Shown: one piece after another, positions 15,605 to 62,610 of the stretch
How positions within the stretch are numbered: position 1 is the stretch's first letter
Layout: the number at the start of each line of letters is the position of its first letter
Source of the DNA: an uncultured virus (IMG/VR IMGVR_UViG_3300042691_048250)
Taxonomy: Duplodnaviria > Heunggongvirae > Uroviricota > Caudoviricetes
DNA: 64,000 nt
Reading direction: 5' to 3' (one strand)
Virus record (IMG/VR): IMGVR_UViG_3300042691_048250
The notes under the pieces: generated by a model
The model's database searches: none
What the model saw: only the letters and a program-made list of their open reading frames with translations
What the model was told of the DNA's origin: nothing
Program-made: the position numbers and the translations under genes

Positions 15605-16266
15605 TTCCTGAAAGATTTCGCCGAGATTACGACGGTGAATTCGTAGTGCTCCATACAAGAATTTCTGGTGGCATCAAAGAACAGCGGCGTGAATGGATTC
15701 CTAATCCCATTGAAAACTTCCACATCTCAGGACGTGCTGTGGTCATTGGCAGTAGAAGCCAACAGGATCAATTCCAGCATCAAAGATTACAACGACATCG
15801 TGGCGGCCTGTTAGGTAAAAAGAAAGTACAGACCTACAGTTGCGATGATATTTGGACTGACATGTTCGTAGATTTTTATGTCAGCAACAACAGCGAATAC
15901 ATAACCCAGATCCTGGAACAAAACTATGATACCAAAAGTACAGTTTATACCAGGCCAAAATTGATCTTGGAGCACCCGGGTCGATTGTATCCGGTGCCCT
16001 ACGGGCCTTTGCTCAGCGATCCGGCTCTGGCTGTATACTTGGCAGCATTCGATCAGCACCAAGAAGTGTTTTTGTTAGGTATGACAAACGATACCAAATA
16101 CAAAGATCGCAATACAGTGGATGAAATACGGCGTGTGATAGAATCATATCGCGGCACAAAGTTTTATGGAGTTGGTGAATCGCCGGCATTTGAAAATTCC
16201 TGGCGTAATCTACCAAATTTTGAGACTATGTCAATCCGCAAGTTTGTCAGTTACTGCGACATCTGA
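15601..16266 (+). CDS. Divergent paralogue of the Maf/CstII-like protein at 3284
   Basis: RAVVIG...TYSC...PALAVYLAAFDQHQEVFLLG aligns with PIATAVAAMDQHHRIYLLG. Confidence 0.6.
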   Translation: MIPERFRRDYDGEFVVLHTRISGGIKEQRREWIPNPIENFHISGRAVVIGSRSQQDQFQHQRLQRHRGGLLGKKKVQTYSCDDIWTDMFVDFYVSNNSEYITQILEQNYDTKSTVYTRPKLILEHPGRLYPVPYGPLLSDPALAVYLAAFDQHQEVFLLGMTNDTKYKDRNTVDEIRRVIESYRGTKFYGVGESPAFENSWRNLPNFETMSIRKFVSYCDI

Positions 16267-19491: not shown

Positions 19492-19764
19492 ATGGACATA
19501 GAAGATTGGCAACGCCTGCACGCCCGTTTGGATCGTGCCCATAAAAACACGCTGGGCATGGCTTTTGGCATGAAAGATCTCTGGCGCATGCACAGGGCCG
19601 TGTACGACAAACTGCGGCTGGCCGATGCTGAATGGGTGAACTGTCGGCGTCGTGGGCAAGGTTCGCCATTGTTCAATGACTTGATGGCACAGGCCGAAGA
19701 TGCCATGAAGAATTTTGAAGGACATATTTTGTTGGCTAAACTAATGGACAAGGAGCCCAAATGA
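19492..19764 (+). CDS. Hypothetical protein (90 aa, likely leaderless)
   Basis: ATG 7 nt after the -10 box; stop overlaps the next start. Confidence 0.65.
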   Translation: MDIEDWQRLHARLDRAHKNTLGMAFGMKDLWRMHRAVYDKLRLADAEWVNCRRRGQGSPLFNDLMAQAEDAMKNFEGHILLAKLMDKEPK

Positions 19765-20909: not shown

Positions 20910-20934
20910 ATATCTGGGCAAGGAGCCCCAGATG
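20907..20934 (+). promoter_or_regulatory. Late promoter overlapping an RBS/start-codon hairpin
   Basis: TAAATA 20907-20912; atctggg-caaggagc-cccagat(g). Confidence 0.65.
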
Positions 20935-23907: not shown

Positions 23908-24005
23908 ACGGGTATTTACGACGTAGACCTTAATTAAGGCTCCTGTAAACGGCTTGTTTTTGGTTCAGCCAATAAATATTGATAACCATTTATAAGGATA
24001 ACACT

Positions 24006-27000
24006 ATGGCACTTGTATCCCCCGGCGTAGAAGTTACCGTCATTGACGAGTCTAACTATATTCCAGCCGCGACCAACTCGGTCCCATATTTTCTCATCGC
24101 TACAGCGCAGAACAAAATCTCTGGCGCGGGTGTAGGCGTAGCCGCAGGCACACTGGCTGCCAATGCAGGCAAAGTATATCTCATAACCAGCCAGCGCGAT
24201 TTGAGCGCCACGTTTGGCGTACCGTTCTTTTACAAGACATCCGCGGGCACACCAATCAACGGATACGAACTCAACGAATACGGATTGTTGGCAGCATACT
24301 CAGCACTGGGCATAAGCAATCGTGCGTATGTACAGCGTGCTGACATAGATTTGGCCGAACTCACAGCCAGCCTGGTAAGACCCACTGGTTCGCCGGCTGA
24401 TGGCACATATTGGTTGGATACCACATCCACAGCCTGGGGTATTTTCCAGTGGAATCAGACTACGGGTGAGTTCACCGTGCAGACTCCAATCGTGATTACC
24501 GACACAGGTGATCTCACAGCCGGTGTACCCAGTGCTGACATTGGCAGCATCGGCGATTACGCCGTGGTTGCAACCAATGCGTTCAATCCTGTGTATTACA
24601 AAAATCAAGACAACACCTGGGTCGAAGTAGGCACAGACGCTTGGAAAAACTCATGGCCCACAGTGCAAGGCGCCAACACTGTCACAGGCAATGCTTTGAC
24701 CGTTGGCAACAAGATCACCATCAACGGTACAGAAATCACGCTGTCTGGACAGACCTTGGCCAGCCTGGTTGCACAGATCAATTCTGCGGCTATAACCGGT
24801 GTCACTGCTGAAACCAATCTCACACGCACCAGCAACAAACTATGGTTGTATGCTGATAGTGAAGCCACCAGCGACGCTTCCACAGCAGGTGGCGGCATCA
24901 TCAACATCGCACCAGAAAGCACAGCGGGTTTGCTGACCACGTTGGGTGTAACTGCGACCACTTACCTGGCTCCAGCATTACAACAGAGTCCAAACTACAC
25001 AGTTCCACGCTGGAGAACTACCGATACCGAAGGTGGTCATCCCACAGGATCAGTATGGAACATGACCACGGCAGTGAATCAAGGTGCTGACATCATTGTT
25101 AAGAAATTCAGCGCCGCGCTTGGTCTCTTTGTAAATCAAAGCGCACCGATCTATGAAAACGATCAAACTGCCAACAAGAATCTCGATCCCACAGGTGGTG
25201 GTAAAAACATCCCCGCAGGTACTACCTATGTACAATACAACGTGGATCCTGAACTGTCGGGCAGTGGCAACTACAACAACACGCTGACCTTGGAAATTTT
25301 TGAAAGGCTGGTAGCCGGTGCTACAATAATCACCGGCGATGATACAGCACCAGTGTTTGCAGGTGGTACCAAAACATTTACCATCCAGTACAGTACAGCA
25401 AACTCGGCCACGCTGAGTTCCACCTACACAGCATCATTCACTGGCACAACAGCAGCTGCCTTTATAACAGCAGTGTCAGCAGCCCTGCCGTCAGGCGCAC
25501 CGGTTTCGGCCAGTGTCAATTCAGACGGCGCTATCGTGTTTACACACAGCCTGGGCGGTGTGATCGTGTTGGATGACACGTCAGGCACAGCAGTAGCATC
25601 AGCTGGCTTTGACAATACCGTGACTGGAGTGCGTGATGGCACAGGCACACAGACTGGTGCTTTGATCCTGAGCAACTGGGTGCCGCTGACCTATACTGCC
25701 AGCGCCACTGCTCCAAGCCAAGATCCAGCCGACGGTCGTTACTGGTATTATTCGGCCACGGATCAGGTAGACATCATGATCCAGAACAATGGATCTTGGT
25801 TAGGATATCAAAATGTCACTAACGATGTTCGCGGTTACAACCTGCAGAACACCAACTCTACTGGTCCTATCGTGTCGGCCTCGGCTCCCACACAGCAGAC
25901 TGACGAAACAGCCTTGGTCGAAGGCGATCTCTGGATAGACACATCAAATCTTGAACTTTATCCGGTGATCAAACGCTGGCAGGAAGTGGACGGGGTGACC
26001 CAGTGGGTGACCATAGACAACACCGACCAGACCACGGAAAATGGTGTGCTGTTTGCTGATGCTCGCTGGGCTACCAACGGCTATACCAATCCTATCACTG
26101 ATGCTATCCCAAGTATTACTGCTCTTTTGACCAGCAATTATCTTGACGTGGATGCGCCAGATCCTGGGCTGTATCCGGAAGGCATGCTGTTGTTCAACAC
26201 ACGCCGCACAGGATTCAACGTGAAATCATTCCAGGTTGACTATTTCAACGCCACCAGTTTCTCTTTTGATTCATACTCGCCAAGCACGGCCTATGTGGTC
26301 GGTGATCGGGTGTTGTACAATGCCGCTCTTTGGGTGTGTATACAAAACAGCACCGGCAACAACCCCAGTGTTTCCAGCGCCTATTGGGATCCACTGCAGA
26401 CCAATGCCTGGGTCACGGCCGCTGGTAACCGTAACAACGGATCACCTTACATGGGCCGTCAAGCAGTGCGCAAACTTGTAGTCGATGCCATGAAGTCGGC
26501 CATCGATACCCAAGACACCCTGCGTGAAGAACAGGTTGAGTTCAATCTTTTGGCCACACCACAGTATCCTGAATTGATACCTAACATGGTGGCTTTAAAC
26601 AACGAACGTAGCAACACTGGCTTTGTCGTGGGCGACACACCGTTGAGACTACAACCCACAGGCGAAAGCATCGTGACCTGGGCCACCAACACCGCTGGCG
26701 ATTCAATCGACAGCGAATCTGGATTGGTCACTGCTGATGCATATCTTGGCGTGTTCTATCCTTCATGCCAGACCACGGATCTTGGTGGCAGCCAGGTAGT
26801 ACAACCGCCCAGCCACATGATGGTGCGCACCATAATCCGCAACGACGAAGTGGCTTTCCCCTGGTTAGCTCCAGCAGGTGTGCGACGTGGTGTGATCGAC
26901 AACGCTGAACGCATTGGTTATGTCAACGGTCAGACCGGAGAATTTGTGACCATAGCCACAGGCCAAGGCCTGCGTGATGTGCTGTATGAAAACAAGATCA

Positions 27001-27419
27001 ATCCAATCACGTTTATTCCTGGTGTGGGTATAACCAACTACGGCAACAAGACCGAAGCCAATACACCCAGTGCCTTGGATCGCATCAACGTGGCTCGTCT
27101 CATAGCATTCATACGTGGACGCTTGGAAGAGATTGGCAAGACTTTTGTGTTTGAGCCCAATGATCAGATCACACGCAACGAAATCACCAACGCTATCGAC
27201 GGTCTCATGATCGATCTCGTAGCCAAGCGTGGCGTCTATGATTACTTGATCGTGTGTGATGAAAGCAACAACACACCGGCTCGTATCGATCGCAACGAAC
27301 TGTATGTTGACATCGCTATCGAACCAGTGAAAGCAGTGGAATTCATTTACATACCTTTGCGAATCAAGAACACAGGTGAGATCGCTGCCGGTACAGTATC
27401 CTCGTCAAGTGCCGTCTAA
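24006..27419 (+). CDS. gp18: Tail sheath protein (enlarged, 1137 aa)
   Basis: MALVSPGVEVTVIDES N-terminus; PWLAPAG..RG, INPI, DRINVARL, FEPND..TR, P.KAVEFIYI; TAAATA about 23973. Confidence 0.95.
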   Translation: MALVSPGVEVTVIDESNYIPAATNSVPYFLIATAQNKISGAGVGVAAGTLAANAGKVYLITSQRDLSATFGVPFFYKTSAGTPINGYELNEYGLLAAYSALGISNRAYVQRADIDLAELTASLVRPTGSPADGTYWLDTTSTAWGIFQWNQTTGEFTVQTPIVITDTGDLTAGVPSADIGSIGDYAVVATNAFNPVYYKNQDNTWVEVGTDAWKNSWPTVQGANTVTGNALTVGNKITINGTEITLSGQTLASLVAQINSAAITGVTAETNLTRTSNKLWLYADSEATSDASTAGGGIINIAPESTAGLLTTLGVTATTYLAPALQQSPNYTVPRWRTTDTEGGHPTGSVWNMTTAVNQGADIIVKKFSAALGLFVNQSAPIYENDQTANKNLDPTGGGKNIPAGTTYVQYNVDPELSGSGNYNNTLTLEIFERLVAGATIITGDDTAPVFAGGTKTFTIQYSTANSATLSSTYTASFTGTTAAAFITAVSAALPSGAPVSASVNSDGAIVFTHSLGGVIVLDDTSGTAVASAGFDNTVTGVRDGTGTQTGALILSNWVPLTYTASATAPSQDPADGRYWYYSATDQVDIMIQNNGSWLGYQNVTNDVRGYNLQNTNSTGPIVSASAPTQQTDETALVEGDLWIDTSNLELYPVIKRWQEVDGVTQWVTIDNTDQTTENGVLFADARWATNGYTNPITDAIPSITALLTSNYLDVDAPDPGLYPEGMLLFNTRRTGFNVKSFQVDYFNATSFSFDSYSPSTAYVVGDRVLYNAALWVCIQNSTGNNPSVSSAYWDPLQTNAWVTAAGNRNNGSPYMGRQAVRKLVVDAMKSAIDTQDTLREEQVEFNLLATPQYPELIPNMVALNNERSNTGFVVGDTPLRLQPTGESIVTWATNTAGDSIDSESGLVTADAYLGVFYPSCQTTDLGGSQVVQPPSHMMVRTIIRNDEVAFPWLAPAGVRRGVIDNAERIGYVNGQTGEFVTIATGQGLRDVLYENKINPITFIPGVGITNYGNKTEANTPSALDRINVARLIAFIRGRLEEIGKTFVFEPNDQITRNEITNAIDGLMIDLVAKRGVYDYLIVCDESNNTPARIDRNELYVDIAIEPVKAVEFIYIPLRIKNTGEIAAGTVSSSSAV

Positions 27420-30103: not shown

Positions 30104-30604
30104 ATGACACGCAAGCTCGAAGAATTGTTTGATCTACCCAATGACGACAAAGACAACCACATCTCAAATGCTGAACCGAATAACGACGTTGAGGCGCACC
30201 TGCCCATCGTGCCAGAGACTCTGGCTGCTCTTGACAAGATCGAAGCCGCCCTCCCAGCAGTCCGGGGGTTAGAAGCCTCGGACAGTGAGATGGACGAGCT
30301 GGCCGACAAAGCCAAGAAAGAATTTGACAATCTCATGGATCTGGGCATGAACGTTGACAGCCGCTATGCATCAGAGATCTTTGCTGTGGCCAGCCAGATG
30401 TTAGGGCATGCTATCACGGCCAAGAATGCCAAACTCAACAAAAAACTCAAGATGATCGAGTTACAGATGAAGAAGCTCAAAATGGATCGCGAAGCCGGCG
30501 ATAGCGGTCCTGACCTACCCACAGCACAGGGACATGTGCTGGATCGCAATGAACTGTTGCGCACACTGTTGCACAAAGATGCGACGCCACCAAAATCGTC
30601 GTAA
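30104..30604 (+). CDS. Putative terminase small subunit
   Basis: Helical 166-aa protein with a R..E.F.VA.QML...AK..K coiled segment reminiscent of gp16; TAAATA 4 nt upstream. Confidence 0.45.
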   Translation: MTRKLEELFDLPNDDKDNHISNAEPNNDVEAHLPIVPETLAALDKIEAALPAVRGLEASDSEMDELADKAKKEFDNLMDLGMNVDSRYASEIFAVASQMLGHAITAKNAKLNKKLKMIELQMKKLKMDREAGDSGPDLPTAQGHVLDRNELLRTLLHKDATPPKSS

Positions 30605-39864: not shown

Positions 39865-41430
39865 ATGGGCAAAGCCAATGAAGTAGTGCTGGTCAAATCA
39901 CCGCACCAGCGACAAGTCTACACCTCCGAACAGATCGACGAATTCCGCCAGTGTGCGGATCCTGTCACGGGCCCCATGTACTTTCTGGACCACTTCTTCT
40001 ATATACAGCACCCTACCCAGGGCCGGATGCTGTATCACCCTTTTGATTATCAAAAGAGATTGATAGAAACTTATCACAACTATCGGTTTTCAATCTCCAT
40101 GATGCCTCGACAGACTGGTAAGTCAACATCAGCCGCGGGTTATCTGTTGTGGTATGCCATGTTCGTTCCCGATTCCACTATCCTGGTAGCTGCCCACAAA
40201 TACACTGGTTCGCAGGAGATCATGCAGAGGATACGCTATGCCTATGAATCAGTGCCCGATCACATCCGCGCTGGAGCAGTGGACTACAACAAAGGCAGCC
40301 TCACATTTGACAACGGCAGCCGCATAGTGTCGGCTACCACCACAGAAAACACCGGCCGAGGCATGTCAATATCCTTGCTGTATGCAGACGAGTTTGCCTT
40401 CGTGCGCCCCACCATTGCCACGGAATTCTGGACTTCCATATCACCTACCTTGGCCACTGGTGGTAAGGCCATCATCACATCAACGCCCAACTCAGACGAA
40501 GATCAGTTCGCCTTGCTATGGAAGGGCGCCAACAGGATGGAAGATGAATATGGCAATCCCACACAAGTGGGACAGAATGGATTTCGGGCCTATCGCAGTT
40601 TCTGGAACGAGCATCCTGATCGCGATGAAACCTGGGCGCAACAACAGCGTGCGGCACTGGGCACGGATCGTTTCCGCCGAGAGATGGACTGCGAATTCAT
40701 CATCGCTGATGAGACCTTGATCGCTCCGGCCAAACTCATAGACTTGCAACCTGCGGAACCTGCCTACAAGACCGGCGAAGTCCGCTGGTTCGCCCACCCA
40801 CGTCCAGATCGCATCTATGCCATAGCCCTGGATCCCAGCTTGGGCACCGGGGGTGACCCGGCAGCGATCGAAGTGTTTGATGCCAATACCACTGAACAGG
40901 TAGCCGAGTGGCGCCATAACAGGACTGACATACCCACACAAGTGCGCATCCTGACCAACATCGTGCAACACATCTACGATACAGTCAAAGACGAGAAAAA
41001 TATCTATTATACTGTAGAGAACAATACCATTGGTGAAGCTGCCTTGATGAGCATCGCCGAATTTGGTGAGGAAAATATCAAGGGCTACTTTTTGTCAGAA
41101 CCCGGCGCGGGTTCACGCAGATTCCGCAAGGGATTTAACACCACCCACAAGCCCAAGTTAGCAGCCTGTAGCAAATTTAAAAATCTACTGGAAAGTGGTC
41201 GCATGCGTGTACACAGTGCCAGCCTGATTTCTGAGTGCAAAACTTTTGTGGCATCGGGCACAAGTTACGCAGCCAAGGTAGGCGAGACTGATGATCTGGT
41301 CATGGCCACGTTGTTGGTAGTGCGCATGCTCCAGGTCCTACAAGAATATCACAAAGAACTGGATGATCGCATGCGGGATCATGGGGAAAACATGATCGAG
41401 CCTTTACCCTTTGTAATGACCATGGGCTAA
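39865..41430 (+). CDS. gp17: Terminase large subunit
   Basis: PRQTGKST Walker A, LLYADEFAF Walker B, ITSTPN, DPS.G.GGD nuclease, DDLVMA. Confidence 0.96.
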   Translation: MGKANEVVLVKSPHQRQVYTSEQIDEFRQCADPVTGPMYFLDHFFYIQHPTQGRMLYHPFDYQKRLIETYHNYRFSISMMPRQTGKSTSAAGYLLWYAMFVPDSTILVAAHKYTGSQEIMQRIRYAYESVPDHIRAGAVDYNKGSLTFDNGSRIVSATTTENTGRGMSISLLYADEFAFVRPTIATEFWTSISPTLATGGKAIITSTPNSDEDQFALLWKGANRMEDEYGNPTQVGQNGFRAYRSFWNEHPDRDETWAQQQRAALGTDRFRREMDCEFIIADETLIAPAKLIDLQPAEPAYKTGEVRWFAHPRPDRIYAIALDPSLGTGGDPAAIEVFDANTTEQVAEWRHNRTDIPTQVRILTNIVQHIYDTVKDEKNIYYTVENNTIGEAALMSIAEFGEENIKGYFLSEPGAGSRRFRKGFNTTHKPKLAACSKFKNLLESGRMRVHSASLISECKTFVASGTSYAAKVGETDDLVMATLLVVRMLQVLQEYHKELDDRMRDHGENMIEPLPFVMTMG

Positions 41431-59454: not shown

Positions 59455-60167
59455 CCGCACCAGTTGACTGCGCCTGCGTGATACATGGAAATGCCTATGA
59501 TTGGATTTACGTAGACAAACTGAGATCTATGTTGGTCCGCAACTTCAGCCGACCTGTGAATTTGCATGTGTGGACCGAAGCCCATCGGTCAGTGCCAGCA
59601 CCTTTTATCAAACACGATCTGTACGAATGGCCTGGCATATCTGGTCCCAGGAAAAGTTGGTGGTACAAGATACAGATGTTCAACAGCAATTATTTCCAGG
59701 GCCGATTGATATATTTTGATCTTGACACTATCATAGTGCGCAACATAGACTGGTTGATCAATCTCGATGCTGATTATCTGTGGGCACCACGAGATTTCCG
59801 GCACCATTGGAAAGGACAGTGGTCTGGAATCAATTCCAGCATCATGGTTTGGAACACCACAAAGTTTGATTGGATATGGAGAAATTTCAATCAAAATAAC
59901 ATTACCAGCACGGTAAAGAGATTTCCTGGAGATCAGGACTATCTGACCAATGTGTTGGACAACACCAATCGACGATACATGGATGCCGACATGGTGAAAA
60001 GTTGGCGTTGGCAGATCAAGGATGGCGGCATGAACTTCAAGACTCGCCAATACAAACGGCCCGACGCAGGTAGTATCTTGGATCCTTTGACCAGCATAAT
60101 AATTTTCCACGGTCAACCCAAACCACACGAAATCCACGAGCCTTTTATACAACAGCACTGGGGTTGA
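59451..60167 (+). CDS. GT8-like glycosyltransferase
   Basis: WWYK..MF, YFDLD, NSS.M, GDQDY, FHGQPKP. Confidence 0.85.
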   Translation: MTAPVDCACVIHGNAYDWIYVDKLRSMLVRNFSRPVNLHVWTEAHRSVPAPFIKHDLYEWPGISGPRKSWWYKIQMFNSNYFQGRLIYFDLDTIIVRNIDWLINLDADYLWAPRDFRHHWKGQWSGINSSIMVWNTTKFDWIWRNFNQNNITSTVKRFPGDQDYLTNVLDNTNRRYMDADMVKSWRWQIKDGGMNFKTRQYKRPDAGSILDPLTSIIIFHGQPKPHEIHEPFIQQHWG

Positions 60168-60297
60168 CCAGAAATGGTATTTTCTATAATATAGCACATG
60201 CTTAAACAACCACAAAAAACGACCTGTTGCAAAAAAACAACACCAAAAACAGCCCAAAAATACCGTGGTTGACCAGAAATACCCGTTTTGCTATACT
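60162..60297 (+). promoter_or_regulatory. Tandem sigma70-type promoters sharing GGTTGACCAGAAAT
   Basis: TTGACC 60164-N17-TAATAT and TTGACC 60269-N17-TATACT; palindrome TGTTG-N8-CAACA between them. Confidence 0.8.
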
Positions 60298-60329
60298 AAT
60301 AGAATAATAACGCTATAGGAGCATAGACA

Positions 60330-61346
60330 ATGACACAAGTTCTCATCCGCAACGGTGAATATCGTAAACAAGACGTATCAGGCCTGCGCTTCACGCTGTT
60401 GCGTGACTTCCAGACAGACGCCAAAGGTGGCAATGTAGTGGTAGCCAACGAAGGTATCTTTCCGGGCATGCCGGATCAGATCCGCATTCGCGTAGACTCA
60501 ATTGAAGACATAGAAATCACAGGAGCCCGTCCAGTGTCCAAACAACCCCAGGTAGTAGAATTCATCAAGCCCGAAGAAACCGACGAGCAGGTCATGGACC
60601 GTATTGAAAAACGTTTCTCCATACTTGATGACATGACCAAGGCTGCCATCGCTGGTGACATCCGTGCCATGATCGTTGTAGGCCCTCCAGGAGTGGGCAA
60701 ATCTTACGGCGTTGAGTACCAGTTGGAAAAGGCTGGTATGTTCGACCAGATCTCTGGCAAGAAGATCAAGTACCAAGTGATCAAGGGTGCCATGACGCCG
60801 ATTGGTCTTTATTGCACACTTTACAAAAACAGCGACCCAAGAAACGTCTTGGTGTTTGACGACTGTGACTCGATCTTGTTGGACGATGTGGCCCTGAACA
60901 TCCTCAAGGCCGCCCTGGACTCAGGCAAGAAACGTCGCATCCACTGGAACGCTGACTCGTCGATGTTGCGTCGTGAAGGTGTGCCCGATCAGTTCGACTT
61001 CAAGGGTTCGGTTATCTTTATTACCAACTTGAAGTTTGATCACCTCAAGAGCAAGAAATTGCAGGATCACTTAGAGGCGCTCCAGAGCCGTTGTCACTTC
61101 CTGGATCTCACCCTGGACACCACCCGCGACAAGATACTCCGCATCCGCCAGATCTTCCGCAAGGGTGATCTGTTCCAGGACTATGATTTCACACCTGAGC
61201 AGGGTGAAGAGATCGTACAGTTCATGCAAGACAATCATGCCAAACTGAGAGAGATCAGCCTGCGCATGGCACTGAAATTGGCTGATCTTACCAAGATCGG
61301 TAGTAACTGGCAAGCCCTGGCCGAATCAACTTGTATGAAGCACTAA
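60330..61346 (+). CDS. AAA+ family ATPase
   Basis: GPPGVGKS Walker A, LVFDDCD Walker B, IFITN sensor 1, ALQSR Arg finger. Confidence 0.9.
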   Translation: MTQVLIRNGEYRKQDVSGLRFTLLRDFQTDAKGGNVVVANEGIFPGMPDQIRIRVDSIEDIEITGARPVSKQPQVVEFIKPEETDEQVMDRIEKRFSILDDMTKAAIAGDIRAMIVVGPPGVGKSYGVEYQLEKAGMFDQISGKKIKYQVIKGAMTPIGLYCTLYKNSDPRNVLVFDDCDSILLDDVALNILKAALDSGKKRRIHWNADSSMLRREGVPDQFDFKGSVIFITNLKFDHLKSKKLQDHLEALQSRCHFLDLTLDTTRDKILRIRQIFRKGDLFQDYDFTPEQGEEIVQFMQDNHAKLREISLRMALKLADLTKIGSNWQALAESTCMKH

Positions 61347-61356
61347 GAGCAGTAAC

Positions 61357-61393
61357 CGGATCGCTGATCAAAGTCTAGCTCCTAAGCGATCCG
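61357..61393 (+). ncRNA. Candidate 3'-UTR structured RNA with anti-SD loop
   Basis: 9-bp stem cggatcgct/agcgatccg; 61373-61388 is complementary to 60311-60328. Confidence 0.5.
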
Positions 61394-61399
61394 TTTAAC

Positions 61400-61431
61400 A
61401 CAGGTGCCCGTAAAACGGCACCTGTTTTTTT
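61400..61431 (+). terminator. Rho-independent terminator
   Basis: acaggtgcc-cgtaaaac-ggcacctgt then T-run. Confidence 0.85.
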
Positions 61432-61466
61432 GACTTCATGGTTAAGGCGTGTTATGCTTATAAATA
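61430..61466 (+). promoter_or_regulatory. Adjacent sigma70 and late promoters
   Basis: TTGACT-N17-TATGCT immediately followed by TATAAATA (61459-61466). Confidence 0.7.
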
Positions 61467-61482
61467 TCTATTACTTCTCAAT

Positions 61483-62610
61483 ATGCCATTCTGTTTTGCT
61501 CCTTGGTCGAATCTCGACATCAGCCCACAAGGCACTATCAGTCCTTGCTGTAAATTCCGTCACGGACATTATCCAGATAAATCGCTGAACATCAACGAGC
61601 AAGGCATATTGGCCTATGAACAAAGCCGTACCTTGGCCAGGATACGGGAAGATTTCCAACAAGACCGTTGGCCCCAAGGATGCGAGCGTTGTAAAATAGA
61701 AGAAGAAAACGGCGTAGCAAGCAAGCGTCAATTGGATTATGATCGTTGGCGCGAGCACTATGAAAAATACAACAAAGACCAACATGGCTATCTCACTGCC
61801 AGCGTGGCATTCGGCAATACATGTAATTTGACGTGCATCACTTGTAATCCAGTGTCCAGCAGTCGATGGCAACGAGAATATCATGCTCTACATGGGCAAG
61901 ACATAGTGCCAAATCATTTTTATAAGCAAGGTTTTGTTGATGAGTTCATCGATCATGCACCGGCGATCATACACTTGGACATCCCCGGTGGCGAACCTTT
62001 GTTGTCGGGGGTGCCACAACAGAAAGAATTATTACAAAAATTCATAGATCAAGGTCGATCTCATGAGATATGCCTACATTATACTACCAACGCTACTATC
62101 TGGCCAGATCAAGATTGGTGGAATCTCTGGCAGCACTTTCAAGAAATTGATATGCAATTGAGCATAGATGGCATAGATAAACATTTTGAATACATCAGAT
62201 ACCCGGCCGACTGGAATCAAGTATCAATCAATATTCAACGATATCTATCAGAGCAGACATCAAGATCAAATCTCCGCCTCAGTGTAAGCCACACTGTCAG
62301 CGCATACAATATAGCATACATTCCAGAATTTTTATCCTGGTGTCACACCATGACCTTGCCACGTCCTTGGTTAGGTCGTGTGCATGATCCTCAGTACCTA
62401 CGCCCTAGCGTGTGGCCAGACAATGCCAAAAAATATATTATTGATAAATTACAAAGCAGTGATCAAGATGCCCAAATCTGGGCTAATCTAATCATCAATA
62501 CCGATGATAGCAAACACTTTGATCAATTCCGCGATAGATTGGCTTGGCATGATCGTTATCGAAAAACCAATTTTGCCCAAACTTTTCCTGAAATGGCAGC
62601 GTTTTTATGA
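61483..62610 (+). CDS. Radical SAM protein with N-terminal twitch/SPASM-like domain
   Basis: FCFAPW...PCC...CERC; CNLTCITC; GGEP; TTNAT; SIDG...YIRYP..W. Confidence 0.92.
   Translation: MPFCFAPWSNLDISPQGTISPCCKFRHGHYPDKSLNINEQGILAYEQSRTLARIREDFQQDRWPQGCERCKIEEENGVASKRQLDYDRWREHYEKYNKDQHGYLTASVAFGNTCNLTCITCNPVSSSRWQREYHALHGQDIVPNHFYKQGFVDEFIDHAPAIIHLDIPGGEPLLSGVPQQKELLQKFIDQGRSHEICLHYTTNATIWPDQDWWNLWQHFQEIDMQLSIDGIDKHFEYIRYPADWNQVSINIQRYLSEQTSRSNLRLSVSHTVSAYNIAYIPEFLSWCHTMTLPRPWLGRVHDPQYLRPSVWPDNAKKYIIDKLQSSDQDAQIWANLIINTDDSKHFDQFRDRLAWHDRYRKTNFAQTFPEMAAFL

Follow-up and report, generated by a model that had tools for sequence, protein, structure and literature searches.

The 64,000-nt stretch of DNA analyzed here (the window) is part of the genome of a large uncultured myovirus and carries many structural genes, among them those for the tail sheath (23979–27419) and the large terminase (39865–41430). 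The longest related contigs measure 222,775 nt at a CheckV completeness of 64%, which implies a jumbo genome. An AAA ATPase of 338 residues is encoded on the plus strand at 60330–61346 (ATG at 60330, stop codon at 61344–61346). The protein matches Pfam PF00004 slightly over the cut-off and phrog_1250 with an E-value of 1.1e-86, a PHROG annotated as of unknown function; NCBIfam and the PDB gave no sequence match. Its closest homologs in cultured phages, from Pseudomonas phage PA5oct and relatives and from Straboviridae, are less than 40% identical, and one Tequatrovirus record annotates the homolog as nrdC.10. A blastn search with the region against 50,697 phage records returned no match.

Two tandem sigma-70-like promoters are predicted on the plus strand upstream of the ATPase gene. 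The first, P1 (60164–60192; TTGACC-17-TAATAT, 9 of 12), is a consensus match only, while the proximal P2 (60269–60297; TTGACC-17-TATACT with a TG extension, 10 of 12) has a predicted transcript start at approximately 60304, and relatives keep a TTGAC..TATAAT box in its place. P1 and P2 are two copies of one promoter (GGTTGACCAGAAAT...), spaced about 105 nt apart within 60164–60297 and separated by an A/C-rich stretch without an ORF; transcripts from P1 would have a leader about 105 nt longer. The transcription unit is closed by a predicted strong plus-strand intrinsic terminator (61400–61431), comprising a 9-bp stem (61400–61425) and a T7 run to 61431. The T run is overlapped by the next plus-strand promoter (61430–61458; TTGACT-17-TATGCT), which serves a downstream radical-SAM/SPASM gene. 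The mechanical start of that ORF, at 61438, falls inside its own promoter; the likely start is the ATG at 61483, which has no Shine-Dalgarno (SD) sequence. In relatives (e.g., L064 and L077), the −10 box lies only 6 to 8 nt 5′ of the ATG, a gap short enough to suggest leaderless mRNAs.

Between the ATPase stop codon and the terminator lies a plus-strand hairpin (61357–61393) with a 9-bp stem (61357–61365/61385–61393) and a 19-nt loop, which folds alone with −14.1 kcal/mol. The hairpin presents the sequence gtctagctcctaagcg (61373–61388, plus strand), here termed the anti-RBS, which would constitute the 3′ arm of a long-range helix. The corresponding 5′ arm is the leader and SD stretch cgctAtaggagcAtagac (60311–60328, plus strand; GGAGC at 60318–60322), which ends 1 nt before the ATG and is identical to the reverse complement of the anti-RBS, cgcttaggagctagac, save for two single-A bulges at 60315 and 60323. 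The arms can form 16 Watson–Crick pairs around these bulges, and 61368–61370 can additionally pair with 60331–60333 in the start codon region. A preliminary description of this DNA had proposed both the hairpin and its complementarity to the ribosome-binding site (RBS) of its own gene, reaching across the SD to 1 nt before the ATG; on reading, all the coordinates given there proved correct and the 16-bp complementarity could be read off directly. Rfam gave 0 matches at E-values up to 1 within 60100–61600.

The duplex between the translation initiation region (TIR; 60305–60335) and the 3′UTR (61347–61399) was computed at −25.5 kcal/mol, a value attained by 0 of 2000 dinucleotide-shuffled versions of either sequence (z approximately −5.1 and −5.5), as expected if the pairing proposed earlier is stronger than background. 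For a 28-nt core (61366–61393), the own TIR is among the three best distinct sites in 63,969 plus-strand windows, the other two (approximately 9320 and 20186) lying inside ORFs. It also ranks first among the 49 gene TIRs of the window, at −25.5 versus −18.5 for the next. The whole 53-nt 3′UTR has stronger partners inside ORFs, at 16003 (−36.7) and 30481 (−33.5); these are taken as chance matches. The ORF stretches involved (15994–16045 and 30475–30510) pair through the GC stem of the 3′UTR, CGGATCGC. Weak cross-talk with the RBSs near 19751 and 20921 had also been suggested, and this suggestion did not hold up: the duplexes there (−11.3 and −14.1) are near those of ordinary SD-bearing TIRs (−8.8 to −11.1). 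The sequence at these sites, AAGGAGCCC, is an RBS common to two late structural genes (19752–19761 and 20922–20932), encoding a phrog_11903 protein and a head-tail adaptor.

The possibility that GGAGC is simply the general SD of this phage was rejected, as 43 sites with GGAGN and a start codon, counted on both strands and with in-ORF sites included, comprise 17 GGAGA, 10 GGAGG, 9 GGAGC, and 7 GGAGT. Also rejected was an action of the anti-RBS on the downstream gene in read-through transcripts: the radical-SAM/SPASM gene has its own promoter and a leader without a GGAGC-type RBS, so the element does not act as its read-through silencer.

Folding of the full 1128-nt mRNA, calculated like all folds here at equilibrium and without ribosomes, yields a minimum free energy structure that holds exactly the RBS/anti-RBS helix, with pair probabilities of 0.96–1.0 and a brief extension onto the start codon. 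The 3′ end of the full-length message is thereby predicted to be paired with its 5′ end, an arrangement of the kind found in hok mRNA. Opening the TIR (60314–60335) costs a predicted 10.2 kcal/mol in the complete transcript, versus 3.5 to 6.1 kcal/mol in seven 3′-truncated transcripts, in which the SD is still predicted to be paired (P 0.64–0.96) with weak alternative partners. These modeled opening costs fit a greater translatability of nascent transcripts. Whole-mRNA folding was extended to relatives: in 19 of 22 element-bearing loci, pairing between the SD and the pre-terminator region has a probability of at least 0.7. The three others fold differently (L007, 0.10; L010, 0.25; L055, 0.13), and in two loci lacking the element the probability is at most 0.29 and 0.01. 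The preliminary description had further stated that the anti-SD is exposed in the hairpin loop. Twelve of the 16 anti-RBS bases (61373–61384) indeed lie in the loop and four (61385–61388) in the stem, and in local folds of the 3′ modules, 318 of 468 anti-RBS positions are unpaired, versus 1952 of 4558 in the rest of the module; the element is thus presented for pairing.

A scan of viral contigs provided 594 confirmed loci, of which the best 80 (98–61% amino acid identity) were analyzed, at a later stage with 10-kb flanks; 72 of these have both a TIR/leader and an identifiable terminator. Complements to the SD were sought within, or in the 60 nt before, the first terminator hairpin, and 40 representative TIRs combined with 69 other terminator regions of the same contigs served as 2760 controls. 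An exact SD-covering complement of at least 7 nt was found in 64 of the 72 loci and in 56 of 2760 controls; at a length of at least 8 nt, the counts were 46 of 72 and 36 of 2760. Within these best 80 of 594, the conservation across orthologous loci that the earlier proposal called for is therefore present. A looser duplex rule passed 58 of the 72 cognate pairs but also 402 of the 2760 controls (15% false positives). In L007, L009, and L037 the element is present with shorter runs owing to a bulge or a mutated SD, and in L067, where the terminator was miscalled, the element of its group is found 396 nt downstream. Four relatives among the 72 (L011, L027, L028, and L073) lack the element.

The position of the element follows the terminator. 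One to six small ORFs lie after the ATPase gene in 19 loci of the best 80 of 594, and there the element is found 117 to 1074 nt past the ATPase stop codon, still immediately ahead of the terminator and mostly within a hairpin loop closed by a GC stem. The constant relation is therefore between the first RBS of the unit and the last hairpin before its terminator. Across relatives, the anti-RBS lies 3 to 47 nt after the last stop codon. The relation is also specific: in 45 loci of 4 to 21 kb, the 8- to 11-nt RBS word is almost confined to two places, the ATPase RBS and, as its reverse complement, the 3′ element, with a further occurrence at a small ORF directly upstream in 3 of the 45. Among 132 distinct terminators, 41 upstream-TIR matches of at least 8 nt were found, 32 of them to the ATPase gene; most of the other 9 concern small ORFs that immediately precede the ATPase gene and have this 3′ element as their counterpart, and this terminator-centered scan revealed no other operon with a convincing element. 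In an operon scan that used 10-kb flanks, the terminators assigned to most units were again those of the ATPase.

Several variations on this arrangement were seen. In L109, L113, L139, L153, and L158, ORFs of 60 to 131 residues directly upstream of the ATPase gene share the RBS word of their lineage (AGGAGCTA, GGAGCCAA); matching the 3′ element of the operon, these small ORFs may be co-regulated. The anti-RBS is present twice in L016–L021, L039, and the L053 group, where a single-stranded copy immediately follows the stop codon and another occupies the loop of the hairpin preceding the terminator. Farther afield, no convincing element was found at the Tequatrovirus nrdC.10 locus (duplex −7.0), in Aeromonas phage phiAS4, or in Citrobacter phage Ci1. 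At the PA5oct locus (L081; 560–590 and 1740–1790), a hairpin lies just past the stop codon; its 5′ arm mimics the RBS, GGAGTAGCAT, and its 3′ arm, ATGCTACT, shows 8 nt of complementarity to that RBS. The PA5oct match may represent a distant analog from a cultured phage, or it may be due to chance (rough odds ∼0.01).

The bases flanking the GGAG core of the RBS vary by lineage (GGAGCTA, GGAGCAA, GGAGCCAACC, GGAGTTGGC, and GGGCTAGAAA), and the 3′ element follows. In the clade of the window, the RBS GGAGC[A/C/G]TAGAC, in which the bracketed base is the bulge, is accompanied by the 3′ element GTCTAGCTCC. The RBS GGAGCTA(G) of many lineages is matched by (C)TAGCTCC, CGGAGCAA by TTGCTCCG in L016–21 and L039, and GGAGCAA by TTGCTCC in L060 and L061. 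Likewise, GGAGCCAACC faces GGTTGGCTCC in L050, L058, L064, and L070–L079, GGAGTTGGC faces GCCAACTCC in L059, CAACATAGCAA..TAGGAGTT faces AACTCCTA..TTGCTATGTTG in L055 and L069, and GGGCTAGAAA faces TTTCTAGCCC in the L053 group. In the 51 distinct patterns, the position following GGAG is C-G in 45 and T-A in 5, with one mismatch, and the position after that is T-A in 26, C-G in 8, and A-T in 5. In the clade of the window, the bulged RBS position may hold A, C, or G or be missing, whereas the paired bases on either side do not change, as expected of an unpaired position.

The RBS dinucleotide is the complement of the anti-RBS dinucleotide in 54 of 58 loci (from the best 80 of 594), the 58 being the 72 loci minus 3 without an anti-core and 11 with a bulged register. 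On a quick maximum-likelihood tree of the ATPase, this dinucleotide changed at least 9 times in the RBS, at least 11 times in the anti-RBS, and at least 11 times jointly. Cognate TIR/3′ pairs of 39 representatives were better than permuted ones in 20,000 of 20,000 permutations (means −16.5 versus −14.0). Together with the 54 complementary dinucleotides, this result bears out the covariation of RBS and 3′ element across orthologs that was anticipated for a functional pairing. Phylogenetically independent contrasts numbered 4 on well-supported branches (6 on all branches) and were all concordant, too few for the sign test to reach significance (p = 0.125). A test comparing G:U with A:C combinations, which could have distinguished selection on RNA pairing from a DNA inverted repeat, showed no wobble excess, with 8 G:U and 21 A:C at the first flanking position and 68 and 128, respectively, over all flanks; the missing excess is probably due to base composition.

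The reading that best accounts for these observations, and that we hold to be probable, is a fold-back brake acting in cis, in which the anti-RBS masks the RBS of its own message and limits translation of the ATPase. The analysis shows complementarity in excess of chance that is conserved at the 3′ end of the operon, covaries with the RBS, and is thermodynamically preferred in whole-mRNA folds; from this we infer pairing in vivo, action in cis, and translational repression. That the 3′ element pairs with the RBS of its own gene as fold-back or feedback control, the central proposal of the preliminary description, is thus supported by conservation, covariation, and whole-mRNA folding alike. Under the proposed mechanism, a transcript would run from P2 (∼60304) to the terminator (∼61431), bearing the complement of the ATPase leader and SD region in the hairpin directly before its terminator. 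Once the 3′ end had been transcribed, the anti-RBS, mostly exposed in the loop, would pair with 60311–60328 and part of the start codon. The message would fold back, the RBS would be masked, and initiation of ATPase translation would fall, such that ATPase output would depend mainly on ribosomes that load during synthesis or before the message closes. A further-reaching version, in which the anti-RBS serves as a sensor of transcript completion throughout a whole family of uncultured jumbo phages and constitutes an early-gene pulse generator undescribed for phages, is put forward tentatively, and we consider it possible rather than probable. In this version, the first cistron would be translatable only until RNA polymerase reaches the terminator, because the anti-RBS is kept at the extreme 3′ end in short and long operons alike; if so, the ATPase dose per transcript would be set by operon length and be independent of mRNA lifetime.

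A serious rival to fold-back in cis, albeit one we regard as unlikely, is that the hairpin and terminator are released, or outlast decay of the message, as a 3′UTR-derived sRNA of about 75 nt, which would act in trans by pairing with the RBS of each new ATPase mRNA and exert delayed negative feedback. The module has the exposed seed, hairpin, A/U-rich spacer (TTTAACA, ATTTTAC), GC terminator, and U7 tail of what we take, by the usual design rules, to be the end of an Hfq-type sRNA; a U-tailed intrinsic terminator preceded by a single-stranded seed (here unpaired at 318 of 468 positions) is a feature of 3′UTR-derived sRNAs. That the module stays with the terminator, not with the ATPase stop codon, when ORFs are inserted suits an sRNA as well, and an RBS word common to small upstream ORFs in some relatives fits a small regulon. 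Against these points, however, no TIR in the window other than that of the gene itself is a strong target, the target word in the 45 loci is found almost nowhere but at the ATPase RBS, the sequencing runs listed for this sequence include no RNA run, and inspection of the sequences, short of a systematic scan, showed no promoter ahead of the module. Pairing in cis, moreover, needs no helper and benefits from a higher local concentration. Pairing of the two ends might alternatively be protective or positive, shielding them from nucleases (RegB-like enzymes or 5′-end-dependent RNase E) or returning terminating ribosomes to the start. RegB cuts GGAG in the SD sites of T4 early mRNAs, and the duplex covers GGAG; the anti-RBS, 3 to 47 nt after the last stop codon, is also near a terminating ribosome. 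This explanation seems improbable: at about −25 kcal/mol, the duplex over the SD should obstruct 30S binding much more than promote it, and the spacing between element and stop codon varies. RegB (PF10715) exceeded the Pfam cut-off in 0 of 5 related contigs, a weak argument given that these are only 27–64% complete.

We regard as very improbable that no RNA pairing is involved, the complementarity being a DNA-level inverted repeat around the cassette (a site of recombination or protein binding) or a coincidence by descent. The missing excess of G:U over A:C would suit such a repeat, as would the near-palindrome CTAG..CTAG in the loop and the nearby PeSL-like terminator/promoter composites, which have been linked to gene shuffling in the available portion of the description of PeSLs (PMC4122927). 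In contrast, a DNA repeat would not account for these features of the repeated stretch: the SD is always part of it, it always falls, on the transcribed strand, after the last stop codon and ahead of the terminator, its bases tend to be unpaired when the RNA is folded locally, and in several lineages it changes in step with the RBS. The leader of the downstream gene, furthermore, contains no matching RBS, so the 3′ element is not a copy of a cassette RBS.

To our knowledge, very few cases are known in which the 3′ end of a bacterial mRNA regulates the message by pairing with its 5′ end. In the hok/Sok system of plasmid R1, which comprises a toxin and an antisense RNA, the complete mRNA is inert through 3′-to-5′ end pairing, and translatability is set by the state of the 3′ end. 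The 3′ element of hok pairs with a 5′ activator element, not with the SD, and 3′ trimming activates the message. The ATPase mRNA is similar in that its 3′ end is predicted to pair with its 5′ end but differs in that the SD itself is targeted. A toxin with an antisense RNA is not evident at the present locus, the product being an AAA ATPase (phrog_1250) with no antisense promoter standing out opposite the leader. The 3′UTR-derived, Hfq-dependent sRNAs of enterobacteria arise from mRNA ends, carry an exposed seed 5′ of a U-tailed terminator, and, in the known examples, act on the mRNAs of other genes. A seed and a terminator with a U tail are shared by the phage module, whereas its best and nearly only target is the RBS of the parent mRNA.

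In the icaR mRNA of Staphylococcus aureus, as described in the available portion of the report, the 3′UTR motif UCCCCUG pairs with the SD region of the same mRNA; formation of the initiation complex is thereby prevented, and the duplex becomes a target of RNase III. The 3′UTR is long, and icaR is called a singular example there (Ruiz de los Mozos et al. 2013, PMC3868564). As far as that description goes, the phage element resembles icaR in having a 3′UTR motif (here GCUCC and flanks) complementary to the SD region of its own mRNA, with an effect that is here predicted. icaR is described as a single bacterial gene with a long 3′UTR, whereas the present case is a phage early operon with a 3′UTR of about 55 nt. 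Unlike that of icaR, the element occupies or adjoins a hairpin immediately preceding the terminator, remains at the end of the operon when ORFs are inserted, and has covaried with the RBS throughout a large phage family. The PeSLs of T4-type phages, as the available text presents them, combine a stem-loop, a promoter, and the SD of a downstream gene (PMC4122927). The terminator stem-loop at 61400–61425 lies directly upstream of the sigma-70-like early promoter at 61430–61458 and conforms to this class, which applies to the terminator/promoter pair only, the anti-RBS hairpin falling outside it. As in PeSLs so described, a terminator abuts a sigma-70-type early promoter (61400–61458), and relatives show gene insertions between modules. 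An upstream anti-RBS hairpin aimed at the first gene of the operon departs from the PeSL description insofar as it is available (PMC4122927). Keyword searches confined to open-access text led to icaR and the PeSL papers and found no phage 3′-end anti-RBS in the literature, a result that does not prove absence.

The lineage variants of RBS and 3′ element represent a ready natural set of compensatory changes, and the anti-RBS module suggests a compact, portable part for self-limiting expression. Natural covariation over dozens of phage lineages supports an icaR-like logic with a kind of evidence that single-gene cases lack. The fold-back brake would show that phages limit an early protein by means of anti-RBS elements at the 3′ ends of their messages.
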